A stretch of 64,000 bases of DNA from Escherichia coli (GCF_013122565.1 NZ_CP053258.1), one strand, 5' to 3'; positions 3,335-39,882 are shown, numbered from the stretch's first letter. Notes: generated from the sequence alone by a model not told the origin. Numbers and translations are program-made.

Positions 3335-6011
3335 CGAACCCTTACGTCCCGACCCCGACCGTCTGCTGGAACAAACTGCCGCGCCGCATCGGGGGAAGCT
3401 GAAAGTTTTCTTCGGTGCCTGTGCAGGCGTCGGGAAGACCTGGGCGATGCTGGCAGAAGCCCAGCGACTGCGGGCGCAAGGGCTGGATATTGTGGTTGGC
3501 GTGGTAGAAACCCACGGGCGAAAAGATACCGCCGCCATGCTGGAAGGGCTGGCTGTTCTGCCGTTAAAACGCCAGGCGTACCGTGGGCGGCATATCAGCG
3601 AGTTTGATCTCGATGCCGCCCTCGCCCGCCGCCCGGCGCTGATCTTAATGGACGAACTGGCGCACAGTAATGCGCCAGGTTCTCGTCATCCTAAACGCTG
3701 GCAGGATATCGAAGAACTGCTGGAAGCTGGCATTGATGTTTTCACAACCGTCAACGTTCAGCATCTGGAAAGTCTGAATGATGTGGTCAGCGGCGTCACC
3801 GGAATTCAGGTACGGGAAACCGTGCCCGATCCTTTTTTCGATGCCGCCGACGACGTGGTTCTGGTGGACTTGCCCCCGGACGATCTGCGCCAGCGGCTGA
3901 AAGAAGGCAAAGTCTATATTGCCGGGCAGGCGGAGCGCGCCATTGAACATTTTTTCCGCAAAGGCAATCTGATCGCCCTGCGCGAACTGGCACTGCGCCG
4001 TACTGCTGATCGCGTTGATGAGCAAATGCGCGCCTGGCGGGGGCATCCTGGCGAAGAGAAAGTGTGGCACACGCGCGACGCGATCCTTTTATGCATCGGC
4101 CATAACACCGGCAGCGAAAAACTGGTCCGCGCAGCGGCGCGGCTGGCGTCACGGCTGGGTAGCGTCTGGCACGCGGTGTATGTTGAAACCCCTGCCCTGC
4201 ATCGCTTACCGGAGAAAAAACGTCGGGCAATTCTCAGCGCCTTACGTCTGGCGCAGGAGCTGGGCGCGGAGACGGCAACACTTTCTGATCCAGCGGAAGA
4301 GAAAGCGGTAGTGCGTTATGCCCGTGAACATAATCTCGGCAAGATTATTCTCGGTCGCCCAGCCTCGCGCCGCTGGTGGCGTCGGGAAACGTTTGCTGAC
4401 CGACTGGCGCGCATCGCTCCCGATCTCGATCAGGTGCTGGTCGCGCTTGATGAACCACCCGTCCGCACGATTAACAACGCGCCGGATAGCCGCTCTTTTA
4501 AAGACAAGTGGCGGGTACAGATTCAGGGATGCGTGGTTGCCGCCGCGTTATGCGCCGTTATCACCTTAATTGCTATGCAGTGGCTGATGGCGTTTGATGC
4601 CGCCAACCTGGTGATGCTGTATCTGCTTGGCGTGGTGGTGGTCGCGCTATTTTATGGACGCTGGCCTTCGGTGGTTGCTACCGTCATTAATGTGGTGAGT
4701 TTCGATCTCTTTTTTATCGCCCCACGCGGCACGCTCGCCGTCTCTGATGTGCAATATCTGCTGACCTTCGCGGTGATGTTAACCGTCGGGCTGGTGATCG
4801 GGAACCTTACTGCGGGTGTGCGTTATCAGGCGCGGGTAGCCCGTTACCGCGAGCAACGCACACGGCACTTATATGAAATGTCGAAAGCTCTGGCGGTGGG
4901 CCGCAGTTCGCAGGACATCGCCGCCACCAGCGAACAATTTATTGCCTCCACGTTTCATGCCCGCAGTCAGGTGTTGTTGCCCGATGACAACGGTAAATTG
5001 CAGCCGTTAACACATCCGCAAGGAATGACGCCGTGGGACGATGCCATCGCGCAGTGGAGTTTTGATAAAGGCCTGCCTGCGGGTGCGGGCACCGACACGT
5101 TACCCGGCGTGCCGTACCAGATTTTGCCGTTAAAAAGCGGTGAGAAAACCTACGGGCTGGTGGTGGTGGAACCGGGGAATCTGCGTCAGTTGATGATCCC
5201 GGAACAGCAGCGCCTGCTGGAGACGTTTACGCTGTTAGTCGCCAATGCGCTTGAGCGGCTGACGCTGACCGCCAGCGAAGAACAGGCGCGGATGGCAAGC
5301 GAACGGGAACAGATCCGCAACGCCCTGCTGGCGGCGCTTTCGCATGATTTACGCACTCCGCTTACGGTGCTGTTCGGTCAGGCAGAAATCTTAACGCTCG
5401 ATCTGGCAAGCGAAGGATCGCCCCACGCCCGCCAGGCCAGCGAGATCCGTCAGCACGTGCTGAACACTACCCGACTGGTGAATAATCTACTGGATATGGC
5501 GCGAATTCAGTCCGGCGGCTTTAATTTGAAGAAAGAGTGGTTAACGCTGGAAGAAGTAGTCGGCAGCGCGCTGCAAATGCTGGAACCGGGTTTATCGTCG
5601 CCCATCAATCTTTCTCTGCCAGAACCGCTGACCTTAATCCACGTTGACGGGCCACTCTTTGAACGGGTGCTGATTAATCTGCTGGAGAACGCGGTGAAAT
5701 ACGCGGGTGCGCAGGCCGAAATTGGGATCGATGCCCACGTTGAGGGCGAAAATCTACAACTGGATGTCTGGGATAACGGCCCCGGTCTTCCGCCAGGCCA
5801 GGAGCAGACGATATTTGATAAGTTTGCTCGCGGGAATAAAGAGTCGGCAGTACCGGGGGTAGGGCTTGGGCTGGCAATTTGTCGGGCGATAGTGGATGTA
5901 CACGGGGGCACTATTACCGCGTTCAACCGACCGGAAGGTGGTGCCTGTTTTCGTGTTACACTTCCCCAGCAAACCGCTCCTGAACTTGAAGACTTTCATG
6001 AGGATATGTGA
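3327..6011 (+). CDS. kdpD: Sensor histidine kinase KdpD
   Basis: 894 aa from ATG 3327 ([16 protein letters not shown]...); N-terminal KdpD domain with P-loop GACAGVGKT, four TM helices, C-terminal HisKA/HATPase; overlaps kdpC end. Confidence 0.93.
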
Positions 6012-26144: not shown

Positions 26145-26221
26145 GGCTACGTAGCTCAGTTGGTTAGAGCACATCACTCATAATGATGGGGTCACAGGTT
26201 CGAATCCCGTCGTAGCCACCA
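26145..26221 (+). tRNA. metT: tRNA-Met (CAU), elongator
   Basis: 77-nt cloverleaf sequence ending CCA; anticodon loop ctCATaa. Confidence 0.95.
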
Positions 26222-26230
26222 TCTTTTTTT

Positions 26231-26315
26231 GCGGGAGTGGCGAAATTGGTAGACGCACCAGATTTAGGTTCTGGCGCCGCAAGGTGTGCGAGTTCAAGTC
26301 TCGCCTCCCGCACCA
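26231..26315 (+). tRNA. leuW: tRNA-Leu (UAG)
   Basis: 85-nt type II tRNA with long variable arm; anticodon loop ttTAGgt. Confidence 0.95.
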
Positions 26316-26338
26316 TTCACCAGAAAGCGTTGTACGGA

Positions 26339-26413
26339 TGGGGTATCGCCAAGCGGTAAGGCACCGGTTTTTGATACCGGCATTCCCTGGTTCGAATCCA
26401 GGTACCCCAGCCA
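26339..26413 (+). tRNA. glnU: tRNA-Gln (UUG)
   Basis: 75 nt; anticodon loop ttTTGat. Confidence 0.95.
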
Positions 26414-26447
26414 TCTTCTTCGAGTAAGCGGTTCACCGCCCGGTTAT

Positions 26448-26522
26448 TGGGGTATCGCCAAGCGGTAAGGCACCGGTTTTTGATACCGGCATTCCCTGGT
26501 TCGAATCCAGGTACCCCAGCCA
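26448..26522 (+). tRNA. glnW: tRNA-Gln (UUG)
   Basis: Identical copy of the 26339-26413 tRNA. Confidence 0.95.
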
Positions 26523-26537
26523 TCGAAGAAACAATCT

Positions 26538-26614
26538 GGCTACGTAGCTCAGTTGGTTAGAGCACATCACTCATAATGATGGGGTCACAGGTTCGAATCC
26601 CGTCGTAGCCACCA
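26538..26614 (+). tRNA. metU: tRNA-Met (CAU), elongator
   Basis: Identical copy of the 26145-26221 tRNA. Confidence 0.95.
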
Positions 26615-26662
26615 AATTCTGAATGTGTCGAATACGTTCGGCAAATTCAAAAACCAATTTGT

Positions 26663-26737
26663 TGGGGTATCGCCAAGCGGTAAGGCACCGGATTCTGATT
26701 CCGGCATTCCGAGGTTCGAATCCTCGTACCCCAGCCA
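26663..26737 (+). tRNA. glnV: tRNA-Gln (CUG)
   Basis: 75 nt; anticodon loop ttCTGat. Confidence 0.95.
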
Positions 26738-26774
26738 ATTTATTCAAGACGCTTACCTTGTAAGTGCACCCAGT

Positions 26775-26849
26775 TGGGGTATCGCCAAGCGGTAAGGCAC
26801 CGGATTCTGATTCCGGCATTCCGAGGTTCGAATCCTCGTACCCCAGCCA
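26775..26849 (+). tRNA. glnX: tRNA-Gln (CUG)
   Basis: Identical copy of the 26663-26737 tRNA. Confidence 0.95.
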
Positions 26850-33676: not shown

Positions 33677-35215
33677 ATGGCTTTTGCCTCATTAATTGAA
33701 CGCCAGCGCATTCGCCTGCTGCTGGCGTTATTATTCGGTGCCTGCGGAACGCTGGCCTTCTCTCCTTACGATGTCTGGCCTGCGGCGATTATTTCGCTGA
33801 TGGGGCTTCAGGCGTTGACCTTTAACCGTCGTCCACTCCAGTCTGCCGCTATTGGCTTTTGCTGGGGATTTGGCCTCTTTGGCAGCGGTATTAACTGGGT
33901 CTATGTCAGCATCGCGACCTTTGGCGGAATGCCTGGCCCGGTTAACATCTTCCTGGTGGTGCTGCTGGCGGCGTATTTGTCGCTGTATACCGGACTGTTT
34001 GCTGGCGTGCTGTCGCGCCTGTGGCCGAAAACCACCTGGCTGCGCGTGGCGATTGCCGCCCCTGCTCTCTGGCAAGTGACCGAGTTTCTGCGCGGTTGGG
34101 TACTGACCGGCTTCCCGTGGTTACAGTTCGGCTATAGCCAGATTGATGGCCCGTTAAAAGGGCTGGCACCGATAATGGGCGTGGAAGCCATTAACTTCCT
34201 GCTGATGATGGTTAGTGGCCTGCTGGCACTGGCGTTGGTCAAACGCAACTGGCGTCCGCTGGTGGTGGCCGTCGTGCTGTTTGCCCTACCCTTCCCGCTG
34301 CGTTACATCCAATGGTTTACCCCGCAACCGGAGAAAACCATTCAGGTTTCGATGGTTCAGGGCGATATTCCGCAATCGCTGAAATGGGACGAAGGCCAGC
34401 TTCTTAATACGCTGAAGATTTACTACAACGCAACGGCACCGCTGATGGGCAAATCATCGTTGATTATCTGGCCGGAGTCGGCGATAACCGATCTGGAAAT
34501 TAATCAGCAACCGTTCCTCAAAGCACTGGACGGTGAGTTGCGCGAGAAAGGGAGCTCGCTGGTAACCGGGATTGTTGACGCGCGTCTCAATAAGCAGAAC
34601 CGCTACGATACCTACAACACCATCATCACGCTGGGTAAAGGTGCACCGTACAGCTACGAATCAGCCGATCGCTATAACAAAAACCATCTGGTGCCGTTTG
34701 GCGAGTTTGTCCCGCTCGAGTCGATTCTGCGTCCGTTAGCACCGTTCTTTGATCTGCCGATGTCGTCGTTCAGCCGTGGGCCATATATCCAGCCGCCGCT
34801 GTCGGCAAATGGTATTGAGCTTACTGCGGCTATTTGCTATGAGATCATTCTTGGCGAGCAAGTGCGTGATAACTTCCGCCCGGATACCGACTACCTGCTG
34901 ACTATCTCCAATGATGCATGGTTTGGTAAGTCTATTGGTCCATGGCAGCACTTCCAGATGGCGCGTATGCGTGCGTTGGAGCTGGCGCGCCCATTGCTGC
35001 GTAGTACCAACAACGGCATTACGGCGGTGATTGGCCCGCAGGGTGAGATTCAGGCGATGATCCCGCAGTTCACCCGCGAGGTGCTAACCACTAATGTGAC
35101 ACCGACCACCGGACTCACACCGTATGCACGTACCGGCAACTGGCCGCTGTGGGTGCTGACGGTGCTATTTGGTTTTGCCGCTGTGTTGATGAGTCTGCGT
35201 CAACGACGTAAATAA
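33677..35215 (+). CDS. lnt: Apolipoprotein N-acyltransferase
   Basis: 512 aa; N-terminal TM helices and C-terminal nitrilase-like domain. Confidence 0.95.
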
Positions 35216-35611
35216 TCCCTTCTTATCGTGCCGGAATACATCCCGTATTTCGGCACGCTCACCGGATGCGGCATCAGTGCATTATCCGGATAACAATATT
35301 CTCCTATCCAACTTTGGCACATCTATTGCTTTGTTATACAAGGCAAAGCTTGAACCAGCATCAGTACAACCCGGTTGCACCACAGCAATCCACCGGTAGC
35401 ACCAAAAGAGTGCATTTTAAGAATTTTGCTTCGGAATGGTGCGGCGCACCTCGCAAAAACAAACAATAAAACATCAATATCTTTACATTTAGCCAAACTA
35501 AATGTTACCTAACAGGCACAACACTGCACAATAAAGTTGCAGACGATAACAACACAAACACTCACAACGGGTATCCATGCGTTCTTAACGCAGAAGATAA
35601 AGGAGTTGGAT

Positions 35612-36520
35612 ATGCAATTACGTAAACCTGCCACAGCAATCCTGGCCCTGGCGCTTTCCGCAGGACTGGCACAGGCAGATGACGCCGCCCCGGTAGCGGG
35701 CAGTACGCTGGACAAAATCGCCAAAAACGGCGTGATTGTCGTCGGTCACCGTGAATCTTCAGTACCTTTCTCTTATTACGACAATCAGCAAAAAGTGGTG
35801 GGTTACTCGCAGGATTACTCCAACGCCATTGTTGAAGCAGTGAAAAAGAAACTCAACAAACCGGACTTGCAGGTAAAACTGATTCCGATTACCTCACAAA
35901 ACCGTATTCCGCTGCTGCAAAACGGCACTTTTGATTTTGAATGTGGTTCTACCACCAACAACGTCGAACGCCAAAAACAGGCGGCTTTCTCTGACACTAT
36001 TTTCGTGGTCGGTACGCGCCTGTTGACCAAAAAGGGTGGTGATATCAAAGATTTTGCCGATCTGAAAGGCAAAGCCGTAGTCGTTACTTCCGGCACTACC
36101 TCTGAAGTTTTGCTCAACAAACTGAATGAAGAGCAAAAAATGAATATGCGCATCATCAGCGCCAAAGATCACGGAGACTCTTTCCGTACCCTGGAAAGTG
36201 GTCGTGCTGTTGCCTTTATGATGGATGACGCTCTGCTGGCTGGTGAACGTGCGAAAGCGAAGAAACCAGACAACTGGGATATCGTCGGCAAGCCGCAGTC
36301 TCAGGAAGCCTACGGTTGTATGTTGCGTAAAGACGATCCGCAGTTCAAAAAGCTGATGGATGACACCATCGCGCAGGTGCAGACCTCCGGTGAAGCGGAA
36401 AAATGGTTTGATAAATGGTTCAAAAATCCAATTCCGCCGAAAAACCTGAACATGAATTTCGAACTGTCAGACGAAATGAAAGCACTGTTCAAAGAACCGA
36501 ATGACAAGGCACTGAACTAA
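35612..36520 (+). CDS. gltI: Glutamate/aspartate ABC transporter periplasmic binding protein
   Basis: 302 aa from ATG 35612 with AGGAG RBS; signal peptide; the track ORF is extended upstream to 35537. Confidence 0.93.
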   Translation: MQLRKPATAILALALSAGLAQADDAAPVAGSTLDKIAKNGVIVVGHRESSVPFSYYDNQQKVVGYSQDYSNAIVEAVKKKLNKPDLQVKLIPITSQNRIPLLQNGTFDFECGSTTNNVERQKQAAFSDTIFVVGTRLLTKKGGDIKDFADLKGKAVVVTSGTTSEVLLNKLNEEQKMNMRIISAKDHGDSFRTLESGRAVAFMMDDALLAGERAKAKKPDNWDIVGKPQSQEAYGCMLRKDDPQFKKLMDDTIAQVQTSGEAEKWFDKWFKNPIPPKNLNMNFELSDEMKALFKEPNDKALN

Positions 36521-36678
36521 TTACAAGAACCAGGGGCGGAAATTCCAGCCCTCTCAATTGTTACGTAGCACGGACAGACTATACGCCTGATGGTCGTTCC
36601 CCATCGGGCCTGAAAACCGCAATACGCTGGGTAACAATCTTCGAGGGTAGCAGTTAACGCTGCTACCCTCTTTTTTCT
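36516..36678 (+). ncRNA. sroC: SroC sRNA, 3'-derived from the gltI-gltJ intercistronic region
   Basis: 169-bp gltI-gltJ spacer ending in an intrinsic terminator (36643-36678); boundaries placed from my recollection of the K-12 annotation, so approximate. Confidence 0.65.
36643..36678 (+). terminator. Intra-operon rho-independent terminator between gltI and gltJ
   Basis: 11-bp perfect stem gagggtagcag / ctgctaccctc followed by ttttttct. Confidence 0.88.
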
Positions 36679-36689
36679 GGAGTAGATTT

Positions 36690-37430
36690 ATGTCTATAGA
36701 CTGGAACTGGGGTATTTTTTTACAACAAGCCCCGTTCGGCAACACCACCTATCTTGGTTGGATCTGGAGTGGTTTTCAGGTGACGATCGCTTTGTCGATC
36801 TGCGCCTGGATTATCGCTTTCCTCGTCGGTTCATTTTTCGGCATTTTACGTACCGTTCCAAACCGTTTTCTCTCCGGTCTGGGTACGTTGTATGTCGAAC
36901 TGTTCCGCAACGTGCCGTTGATTGTGCAATTCTTTACCTGGTATCTGGTGATCCCGGAGCTGCTGCCGGAGAAAATCGGCATGTGGTTTAAGGCCGAGCT
37001 GGATCCCAATATTCAGTTTTTCCTTTCATCCATGCTCTGCCTTGGGCTGTTTACCGCCGCCCGTGTTTGCGAACAGGTACGCGCCGCTATTCAGTCGCTG
37101 CCGCGTGGGCAGAAGAATGCCGCGCTGGCGATGGGTCTGACGCTACCGCAGGCTTACCGCTACGTACTGCTGCCTAATGCTTATCGCGTTATCGTCCCGC
37201 CGATGACCTCAGAGATGATGAACCTGGTGAAAAACTCCGCCATCGCCTCGACCATCGGTCTGGTAGATATGGCAGCGCAGGCAGGTAAATTGCTCGACTA
37301 CTCGGCTCACGCTTGGGAGTCGTTTACCGCCATTACGCTGGCGTATGTATTGATTAACGCTTTTATCATGCTGGTGATGACGCTGGTTGAACGTAAAGTT
37401 CGCCTGCCCGGCAACATGGGGGGCAAATAA
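36690..37430 (+). CDS. gltJ: Glutamate/aspartate ABC transporter permease
   Basis: 246 aa polytopic membrane protein with ABC permease EAA-like loop. Confidence 0.93.
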
Positions 37431-38104
37431 TGTACGAGTTTGACTGGAGTTCCATTGTTCCTTCCCTGCCATATCTGCTCGACGGGCTGGTGATCACCCT
37501 GAAAATCACCGTCACGGCAGTCGTGATTGGTATTTTGTGGGGCACCATGCTGGCGGTGATGCGCTTGTCCAGCTTTGCGCCCGTAGCATGGTTTGCCAAA
37601 GCCTACGTTAACGTATTCCGCTCGATTCCTTTAGTTATGGTTTTGCTGTGGTTTTACCTGATCGTGCCGGGTTTTCTGCAAAACGTGCTGGGATTATCAC
37701 CAAAAAATGATATCCGTTTAATTTCGGCGATGGTGGCGTTTTCGATGTTTGAAGCGGCCTACTATTCAGAGATTATCCGTGCCGGTATTCAAAGTATTTC
37801 TCGTGGTCAATCGAGCGCCGCGCTGGCGTTGGGGATGACTCACTGGCAGTCGATGAAACTGATTATTCTGCCGCAGGCGTTCCGCGCGATGGTGCCGCTG
37901 CTGCTCACTCAGGGCATCGTACTGTTCCAGGATACCTCACTGGTGTATGTGTTATCTCTGGCCGATTTCTTCCGTACCGCCTCAACCATTGGTGAGCGTG
38001 ATGGTACGCAGGTTGAGATGATCCTGTTTGCCGGATTTGTTTATTTCGTTATTAGCCTTAGCGCGTCGTTGTTGGTCAGCTACTTGAAAAGAAGGACAGC
38101 ATAA
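37430..38104 (+). CDS. gltK: Glutamate/aspartate ABC transporter permease
   Basis: 224 aa; start overlaps gltJ stop. Confidence 0.93.
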
Positions 38105-38829
38105 TGATTACCCTGAAAAATGTTTCAAAATGGTATGGTCACTTTCAGGTGCTGACCGACTGCTCAACCGAAGTGAAAAAAGGCGAAGTGGTGGTGGTTT
38201 GTGGCCCGTCTGGTTCCGGCAAATCAACGCTGATTAAAACCGTCAACGGCCTCGAACCGGTGCAGCAAGGTGAAATCACCGTCGATGGTATCGTGGTTAA
38301 CGACAAGAAAACCGATCTGGCAAAGCTGCGTTCCCGCGTCGGGATGGTGTTCCAGCATTTTGAGTTGTTCCCCCATTTGTCGATTATTGAAAACCTGACT
38401 CTGGCGCAGGTTAAAGTGCTTAAACGCGATAAAGCACCCGCTCGTGAAAAAGCATTGAAATTGCTGGAGCGCGTGGGACTTTCCGCACATGCCAATAAAT
38501 TTCCGGCACAGCTTTCCGGCGGTCAGCAGCAGCGTGTGGCGATCGCTCGCGCATTATGTATGGATCCTATTGCCATGCTGTTCGACGAACCGACATCGGC
38601 GCTGGATCCGGAGATGATCAACGAAGTGCTGGACGTAATGGTCGAACTGGCGAATGAAGGAATGACCATGATGGTGGTGACCCACGAAATGGGCTTTGCC
38701 CGTAAAGTGGCGAATCGGGTGATCTTTATGGATGAGGGTAAAATTGTCGAAGACTCGCCGAAAGATGCGTTCTTCGATGATCCGAAATCGGACCGCGCAA
38801 AAGACTTCCTCGCGAAAATCCTGCATTAA
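38104..38829 (+). CDS. gltL: Glutamate/aspartate ABC transporter ATP-binding protein
   Basis: 241 aa; Walker [13 protein letters not shown] signature LSGGQQQR, Walker B. Confidence 0.95.
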
Positions 38830-38946
38830 TCATTCTGGCGCGCATACCCAAGTGCGCGCCATCTCACGCTTTATCGTTTCGCTCCTCGTATCTGTTATAT
38901 CCTGGCGTTACCCTTGTCGCAAAGAAGCACACAACAAGGAGCAACA

Positions 38947-39882
38947 ATGGCACTGCCAATTCTGTTAGATTGCGACCCAGGTCATGACGATGCTATCGCA
39001 ATAGTTCTCGCCCTCGCCTCACCAGAGCTTGATGTCAAAGCAATTACGTCTTCCGCCGGAAACCAGACACCAGAAAAAACCTTACGCAATGTTCTGCGTA
39101 TGCTGACCTTGCTTAATCGCACCGATATTCCGGTAGCCGGCGGCGCGGTAAAACCGTTAATGCGTGAGTTGATTATCGCGGACAATGTGCACGGCGAAAG
39201 CGGTCTGGATGGCCCGGCATTACCGGAACCGACGTTTGCACCGCAAAACTGTACGGCGGTGGAGCTGATGGCGAAAACGCTACGTGAAAGTGCGGAACCT
39301 GTCACAATTGTGTCTACCGGACCGCAAACTAACGTTGCCTTGCTGCTCAATAGCCTCCCGGAACTGCATAGCAAAATTGCCCGTATCGTGATTATGGGCG
39401 GCGCAATGGGGCTTGGTAACTGGACGCCTGCGGCTGAATTTAATATTTACGTTGACCCGGAAGCGGCAGAAATTGTCTTCCAGTCAGGGATCCCGGTGGT
39501 GATGGCCGGTCTGGATGTTACTCACAAAGCACAAATCCACGTTGAAGACACCGAGCGTTTCCGCGCGATTGGCAACCCTGTTTCAACCATTGTTGCCGAA
39601 CTGCTGGATTTCTTCCTCGAATATCATAAAGACGAAAAATGGGGTTTTGTCGGCGCACCGCTGCATGACCCATGCACCATCGCCTGGTTGTTGAAACCGG
39701 AGTTGTTTACCACTGTTGAGCGCTGGGTTGGCGTGGAAACACAGGGGAAATATACCCAGGGTATGACGGTTGTTGATTATTATTATCTGACTGGCAATAA
39801 ACCGAATGCCACCGTAATGGTCGATGTTGATCGTCAGGGCTTTGTTGATTTACTGGCTGATCGTCTGAAATTTTACGCTTAA
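38947..39882 (+). CDS. rihA: Pyrimidine-specific ribonucleoside hydrolase RihA
   Basis: 311 aa from ATG 38947 ([16 protein letters not shown]..., nucleoside hydrolase DxDxxxDD motif); the track ORF starts upstream at 38914. Confidence 0.92.

Follow-up and report, generated by a model that had tools for sequence, protein, structure and literature searches.

A strong terminator hairpin inside an operon raises the question of what the RNA in front of it is for. In the window, by which we mean the whole 64,000-nucleotide stretch of Escherichia coli DNA that was analysed, such a hairpin stands between gltI and gltJ, and the sequence ahead of it might give rise to a small RNA, act in cis on the downstream genes, serve as an attenuator and nothing else, or encode a small protein. 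Our analysis leads to the first of these answers: the locus is almost certainly sroC, the gene of the GcvB-sponging sRNA that is cut from the glt mRNA, with the published mechanism included. As a finding this is nothing new, since sroC has been known since 2003 and its sponge mechanism since 2015, and the gene stands in both the K-12 annotation and Rfam; the locus is ordinary and already annotated, bar one rare base change. Its value is that of a control, in which the tool chain recovered, for a known RNA, its identity and fold, its terminator and partner sites, and its synteny.

Identity and position of sroC

The gene and its neighbours in the glt operon are arranged as follows.

36516–36678, + strand: sroC, encoding the 163-nt SroC sRNA (Rfam RF00369; identity to K-12 b4763)
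35612–36520, + strand: gltI coding sequence, periplasmic Glu/Asp-binding protein of 302 aa, whose mRNA is the parental mRNA of SroC (open reading frame, sequence and K-12 homologue)
36679–36692, + strand: ribosome-binding region of gltJ, reached by read-through transcripts only (read from the sequence)
36690–38829, + strand: gltJ, gltK and gltL, membrane and ATPase subunits, behind the internal terminator (open reading frames and K-12 annotation)

A whole-window Rfam scan matched 36516–36678 on the + strand to RF00369 (sroC) with a score of 168.4 bits (E = 2.6e-35), against a gathering score of 45 bits for this family. The match spans model positions 1–163 of 163, is not truncated, and recurs in a local Rfam scan by E-value. 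The same interval is identical at 162 of 163 nt to the ncRNA sroC of K-12 MG1655 (b4763, 686681–686843), which the K-12 annotation places between gltJ and gltI, and 5421 of the 5426 complete E. coli genomes match a 241-nt query that spans the gene (36480–36720). The initial annotation, made from the raw sequence, had proposed a SroC-type locus and had named a lack of identity with annotated sroC as the result that would count against it; instead, the identity and the Rfam score are those just given, and the proposed coordinates coincide with both the Rfam match and the K-12 annotation. The raw-sequence reading thus placed sroC to the exact base, which upholds its suggested use as a positive control for reading structured RNAs in this window.

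The gene extends from 2 nt before the stop codon of gltI to 11 nt before the start codon of gltJ. The gltI stop codon, TAA, is at 36518–36520 (the translation ends ...NDKALN) and the gltJ ATG is at 36690, which gives a spacer of 169 bp (36521–36689), as had been stated. This spacer holds sroC, but the description of the locus as intercistronic is not purely correct, because the 5′ part of sroC overlaps the gltI coding sequence by 5 nt. Downstream, the open reading frames of gltJ (36690–37430), gltK (37430–38104) and gltL (38104–38829) follow one another, and the Shine-Dalgarno sequence of gltJ, GGAG (36679–36682), is located directly behind the T-run of the terminator.

When all 4227 Rfam families were scanned by E-value against 35300–36900, sroC was the only family above threshold, and no riboswitch or cis-regulatory leader family matched the locus in the same scan. 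An sbrA match on the terminator was discarded, as its 25.1 bits fall below the gathering score of 45 and reflect a generic likeness among hairpins. No sequence evidence against the sroC reading was seen.

Fold, terminator and GcvB contact sites

Numbering within SroC follows from the window coordinates, SroC position n being window position 36515 + n. The elements of the RNA are listed below.

36516–36532, + strand: unstructured, A/U-rich 5′ end, SroC 1–17, with the putative RNase E processing site at its 5′ boundary (unpaired in the minimum free energy, MFE, fold)
36533–36552, + strand: stem-loop 1, SroC 18–37 (MFE fold)
36556–36639, + strand: stem-loop 2, a long irregular hairpin carrying both GcvB sites, about SroC 41–124 (MFE fold)
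36572–36579, + strand: GcvB contact site BS2, GGACAGAC, SroC 57–64, in the internal-loop region of stem-loop 2 (k-mer complementarity)
36594–36600, + strand: GcvB contact site BS1, UCGUUCC, SroC 79–85, the entire heptaloop of stem-loop 2 (k-mer complementarity)
36643–36676, + strand: Rho-independent terminator at the 3′ end of SroC (hairpin 36643–36670, T-run 36671–36676)

The predicted free energy of the 163-nt RNA is −62.7 kcal/mol. Dinucleotide shuffles gave −39.7 ± 4.1 kcal/mol (z = −5.7), and all 200 of them were less stable. At its 3′ end, SroC 128–155 form the terminator hairpin, which precedes the U-run. The hairpin is built on a perfect 11-nt inverted repeat, GAGGGTAGCAG at 36643–36653 and CTGCTACCCTC at 36660–36670, followed directly by TTTTTT at 36671–36676, in agreement with the earlier description of an 11-bp perfect-stem terminator with a U-run inside the operon. 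The terminator scan describes the same hairpin as 12 pairs including a U·G closing pair, 7 of them G-C, with a loop of 4 nt (UAAC) and then TTTTTTCTGG. The hairpin alone has a predicted free energy of −21.3 kcal/mol, and 36643–36676 is by far the strongest terminator-like site that the scan returned in 35000–39200. The U-run is likely to be the Hfq-binding tail of the RNA. The gltI-gltJ terminator has been described as leaky (PMC4474525).

The pairing sites for GcvB were located by an exact k-mer complementarity search. The gcvB gene lies outside the window and the partner sequence was taken from K-12, a fair substitute given that 5389 of 5425 E. coli genomes have GcvB at 99% identity or more. 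BS2 is a perfect 8-nt complement of GcvB 156–163, GUCUGUCC, and BS1 is a perfect 7-nt complement of GcvB 13–19, GGAACGA. The two sites are separated by 14 nt in SroC, and their partner sites are ~137 nt apart in GcvB, the distance also given for the GcvB contact sites in PMC10250213. About two perfect 7–8-mers between SroC and GcvB are expected by chance, compared with four distinct ones found; the weight of this result therefore comes from the coincidence with experimentally mapped sites and not from complementarity alone, BS1 and BS2 having been mapped in Salmonella by structure probing, 14 nt apart (PMC4474525). That the locus is conserved here, as had been asserted, is borne out by the full-model match to RF00369 and by the two published contact sites, both intact and at the 14-nt spacing.

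Conservation among related species

We scanned one genome per species with an exact BS2...BS1 core pattern, which yielded 93 loci; the pattern fixes both sites, so that BS1 and BS2 are conserved among these loci by design of the search, and the information lies in the flanking features alone. All 93 loci stand under Enterobacteriaceae names except one (L062), which is labelled Chryseobacterium. Wherever flanking sequence exists, the core sits between full-length gltI and gltJ (92 gltI and 89 gltJ matches), and the flanking GltI and GltJ proteins of the related loci are 87–99% identical. The locus titled Chryseobacterium sp. 18061 has a typical enterobacterial gltI-sroC-gltJ arrangement with GltI and GltJ ~94% identical to those of E. 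coli, and it most likely represents a mislabelled or contaminated assembly.

The window and 89 distinct extracts were aligned (90 sequences). The SroC structure tested on this alignment was derived from the window sequence, itself a member of the alignment; 87.5% of its cells are paired, compared with 36–56% when the partners are slid by 1–3 columns. Both sides have changed in 22 of its 48 pairs, and none of 500 shuffles reached its covariation score. The support is distributed over both stem-loops. Stem-loop 1 is paired in 86.5% of cells, with 3 of 8 pairs changed on both sides; the basal helices of stem-loop 2 are paired in 79–84% and contain 9 compensatory pairs; and the apical helix of stem-loop 2 is paired in 96.5%, with 6 of 9 pairs compensatory. 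This covarying apical helix closes the BS1 heptaloop, and RNAalifold recovers the BS1-presenting helix independently. One of the apical pairs called by RNAalifold is A-U in 36, G-C in 36 and C-G in 14 sequences. The terminator is kept in all related loci with flanks and its helices are 97% paired, yet they are near-invariant in sequence across genera and so represent conservation, not covariation. Our own analysis establishes the identity, position and fold of SroC, its terminator, both pairing sites and its synteny in 90 species.

The alignment also revealed where the sequence does and does not vary. The terminator stem and the linkers that flank stem-loop 2 (36636–36650 and 36549–36560) are near-invariant, while the stems of stem-loops 1 and 2 covary freely. 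In most genera the terminator is short, with GAGGGTAGCGCTGCTACCC running into T8. The Escherichia loci (L005, L021, L041, L042 and L059) depart from Salmonella and the majority of other genera: at window 36654–36659 (alignment columns 234–252) they carry a stem-extending 9-nt insert, CAGTTAACG, which gives a stem of 11–12 pairs, and their T-run is interrupted by a C. Kluyvera and relatives (L019, L027, L039, L052, L070, L087 and L092) also have stem-extending inserts at this spot, with a loop sequence unlike that of Escherichia. Cedecea colo (L040) has two copies of the terminator hairpin, ~70–100 and 230–260 nt after the core, with an insert of ~130 nt between them; the first copy is degenerate (GGCTAGCGCTGCTACCC, without a T-run) and the second is intact with a T-run. 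The 3′ half of stem-loop 2 bears an extra, hairpin-like insert of ~35 nt (GUACC...GGUAC) in Buttiauxella, Cedecea and Dryocola (L032, L040, L055 and L078), and a different 14-nt insert occurs at that site in L009 and L020.

Larger insertions were found on either side of the contact core. In three Citrobacter loci (L024, L026 and L045), an insert of ~125 nt with ERIC1R and ERIC2 cores (3–5 mismatches) lies between the gltI stop codon and stem-loop 1. An insert of similar size occupies the same place in Phytobacter and Kosakonia (L056, L072 and L090), where the ERIC1R and ERIC2 cores were not matched. These six loci had at first appeared to have a different upstream gene, an appearance that is due to the ~125-nt insert, gltI being intact. 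In L022, L062 and L089, an ERIC match with 2–5 mismatches lies between the tip of stem-loop 2 and the terminator. All of the insert-bearing loci keep the GcvB contact core, and the terminator is kept wherever the downstream sequence was read. An insert between gltI and stem-loop 1 would shift or alter the RNase E processing site. That the terminator and the GcvB contact core survive ERIC insertions in several genera may be of use to work on SroC processing and on the tuning of the leaky terminator.

A rare base change in SroC

36556, + strand: rare variant, A for G at SroC position 41 (K-12 comparison)

The A at 36556 is the only difference between the sroC of the window and that of K-12. An exact 60-mer carrying A41 is present in 3 of 5421 E. 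coli genomes (strains 14EC033, 100416 and CUWW06), and all 89 of the other Enterobacteriaceae species aligned have G at this position. The change removes the G41-C124 pair that closes stem-loop 2, a pair that is G-C in 86 of the 90 sequences, at a predicted cost of 3.6 kcal/mol (MFE of −62.7 kcal/mol with A and −66.3 kcal/mol with G). Neither the GcvB sites nor the terminator include position 36556. Judged on sequence, G41A is probably harmless, being neutral or nearly so; at a position that is otherwise invariant, it may nonetheless have a mild effect on folding or processing. This rare allele at a family-invariant position is a minor new point that could inform work on SroC processing and terminator tuning.

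SroC biogenesis and action on GcvB

An arrangement of an intra-operon terminator, a stable RNA released from the glt mRNA and an sRNA sponge, which had been proposed for this locus, is described in the same form in PMC4474525 and PMC9438474. A single gltI promoter gives rise to gltIJKL and to a monocistronic gltI transcript that ends at a leaky Rho-independent terminator, and SroC derives from this prematurely terminated transcript (PMC4474525). In the window, transcription from the gltI promoter would mostly stop at the strong, leaky terminator at 36643–36676 to yield a monocistronic gltI-sroC transcript, with the fraction that reads through giving gltIJKL. The 5′ end of SroC is generated by RNase E in the last codons of gltI, in a 5′-monophosphate-dependent and Hfq-guided manner (PMC4474525). 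Applied to the present sequence, 5′-end-dependent decay of the gltI part by Hfq-guided RNase E would halt 2 nt before the stop codon and leave the 163-nt SroC, which is predicted to be tightly folded, very stable and 5′-monophosphorylated. A promoter scan found no sigma-70-like promoter on the + strand in 35000–39200, which is weak evidence on sroC and fits, weakly, with biogenesis by processing.

Once released, the heptaloop UCGUUCC and the internal-loop GGACAGAC would pair with the two distant sites in GcvB and expose GcvB to RNase E, in line with the Hfq-mediated pairing of SroC and GcvB and the RNase E-dependent decay of GcvB described in PMC4474525. The drop in GcvB would then de-repress the mRNAs of amino-acid and peptide transporters, including gltI. 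SroC has other targets as well: it sponges MgrR, and it represses fliE and flhBAE (reviewed in PMC9438474). The steps of the SroC mechanism rest on published experiments, and G41A is inferred to be functionally neutral.

The other arm of the feed-forward loop depends on an element upstream of gltI.

35539–35568, + strand: C/A-rich stretch of the gltI 5′ UTR with complementarity to GcvB in its GU-rich R1 region (duplex scan)

In a sliding duplex scan of 30-nt windows against GcvB R1, 35539–35568 formed the best duplex on the + strand, at −33.2 kcal/mol compared with a mean of −12.4 kcal/mol (sd 4.0). GcvB targets the gltI mRNA at a CA-rich site in the 5′ UTR (PMC4474525), and with this C/A-rich site present, the GcvB-gltI arm of the published loop lies in the window too; in the source strain, the site is a putative GcvB target. 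The sites that ranked next in the R1 scan, near 4131 and 780, were set aside as chance matches, as they are G+C-rich coding sequence inside long open reading frames and not C/A-rich leaders.

SroC of the window agrees with SroC of K-12 (b4763) and of Salmonella Typhimurium in gene, position, 163-nt extent, terminator, and GcvB sites with their spacing; it differs from the K-12 RNA by one base, the A for G at position 41. In a wider comparison, the processed, 3′-UTR-derived Hfq sRNAs CpxQ, SdhX, NarS, MalH and OppZ resemble SroC in being cut by RNase E from a parental mRNA so that they bear a 5′ monophosphate, in sharing the intrinsic terminator of that mRNA, in having no promoter of their own and in acting on the pathway of the parental operon (PMC9438474; PMC4474525). 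The spacer of chbBC, which acts on ChiX, is similar to SroC as a transcript by-product that reduces the activity of an Hfq-dependent sRNA by pairing with it, and sponges such as these two provide cross-talk among the mRNAs of one regulon; the modes of action differ, in that GcvB is cleaved by RNase E through two short, distant contacts, whereas the terminator of ChiX is opened for PNPase (PMC4474525). Unlike the processed 3′-UTR sRNAs, SroC ends at a terminator that separates the first cistron of the operon from the second and so is not at the operon end, and its main target is an sRNA and not an mRNA. The 3′ETS-leuZ fragment is another bacterial sRNA sponge.

Cis-acting and coding alternatives

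Besides producing SroC, the locus might hold a cis-acting switch, formed by conserved nucleotides outside the GcvB contacts, that tunes read-through into gltJKL, although we consider this unlikely. The candidate elements are the linker CCCUCUCGAUUG (SroC 34–45) and AAUCUUCGAGGGUAG (SroC 121–135), with the linker pairing to the first bases of the 5′ arm of the terminator in a manner possibly set by a factor or ligand, and the possibility is one that PMC4474525 itself raises. Both elements are at least 90% conserved over the 90 species while the neighbouring stems vary freely, and the terminator stem is almost invariant in sequence, which is unusual. The same conservation is equally explicable by binding of Hfq or RNase E or by the translation initiation region of gltJ, and as the columns are invariant, covariation neither supports nor refutes the pairing. 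Structure predictions point in both directions. The Rfam consensus pairs 37–41 with 127–131, RNAalifold pairs CCCUC with GAGGG, and in nascent RNAs of 132–144 nt the MFE fold pairs SroC 38–41 with 127–130. However, the alternative helix adds only 1.3–2.5 kcal/mol; at full length, the terminator conformer wins by ~6 kcal/mol and enforced anti-terminator folds are 6–9 kcal/mol worse. In addition, the Rfam scan of 35300–36900 returned no riboswitch or attenuator family.

The explicit form of such a switch is that CCCUCUCG (36549–36556) and CUUCGAGGG (36639–36647) take part during transcription in an alternative pairing with the first bases of the 5′ arm of the terminator and thereby set its leakiness, a model that we regard as quite unlikely. 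If it were true, the terminator leak would govern both the ratio of GltI to GltJKL and the level of SroC, and hence that of GcvB, and with G41A at 36556 the window would carry a naturally weakened form of the switch.

A second alternative keeps the terminator and gives up the sRNA. The locus would be an intra-operon attenuator that sets the ratio of GltI to GltJKL, and the 160-nt RNA would be an inert remnant, protected by its hairpins and devoid of function in trans. This is how the locus was originally seen in 2003. The position of the terminator directly before the gltJ ribosome-binding site suits an attenuator, as does the need for ABC transporter binding proteins in excess, which is discussed in PMC4474525. 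Attenuation is a genuine role of the element and belongs to the best explanation too; as the sole explanation it is refuted by the published genetics, since deletion of sroC alone raises the half-life of GcvB in Salmonella from 1.7 min in the wild type to >15 min (PMC4474525). In E. coli, SroC, which itself lasts >16 min, shortens the half-life of GcvB to 3.8 min (PMC10250213), and ~70% of the GcvB chimeras recovered by RIL-seq in stationary phase are with SroC (PMC9299463). Both GcvB contact sites are, moreover, intact in the window. An attenuator with an inert by-product is thus very improbable, and the locus is best read as sroC with attenuation as one of its roles.

That the spacer encodes a small protein is improbable in the extreme: a 64-codon GTG open reading frame on the minus strand (36554–36748) is in the list of open reading frames and a 7-codon frame begins with the ATG at 36590 inside stem-loop 2, but the indels of related species are not multiples of three (T-runs of 6–9 and inserts of varied lengths), substitutions in the stems come in pairs that preserve the structure and are not codon-like, other genera have GTG, GGG, CTG or a further triplet in place of the ATG of the short frame, and the minus-strand frame runs antisense across the start codon of gltJ.

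Other features of the window

The spacer between lnt and gltI (35216–35611) is an uninterrupted 396 bp in the window. K-12 MG1655 has IS5D (1195 bp, insH3) between lnt and gltI, ~100 bp ahead of the start of gltI. The source of the window is therefore not MG1655-like at this site, and the promoter region of gltI has kept its native state. Upstream of gltI, near 35515–35530, there is a sigma-54-like motif, GGCAC-N-TGCA, whose spacing, judged by eye, is one base shorter than that of the consensus.

Two other groups of RNA genes were matched by Rfam. On the minus strand, 23778–23820 matches the ES036 (CssrF) sRNA family (RF02751) with 41.1 bits (gathering score, 37.6), and on the + strand seven tRNA genes are clustered at 26145–26846. 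On the K-12 map, this cluster would presumably correspond to the metT-leuW-glnUW-metU-glnVX operon, in which case the window is given as the reverse complement of the K-12 reference.
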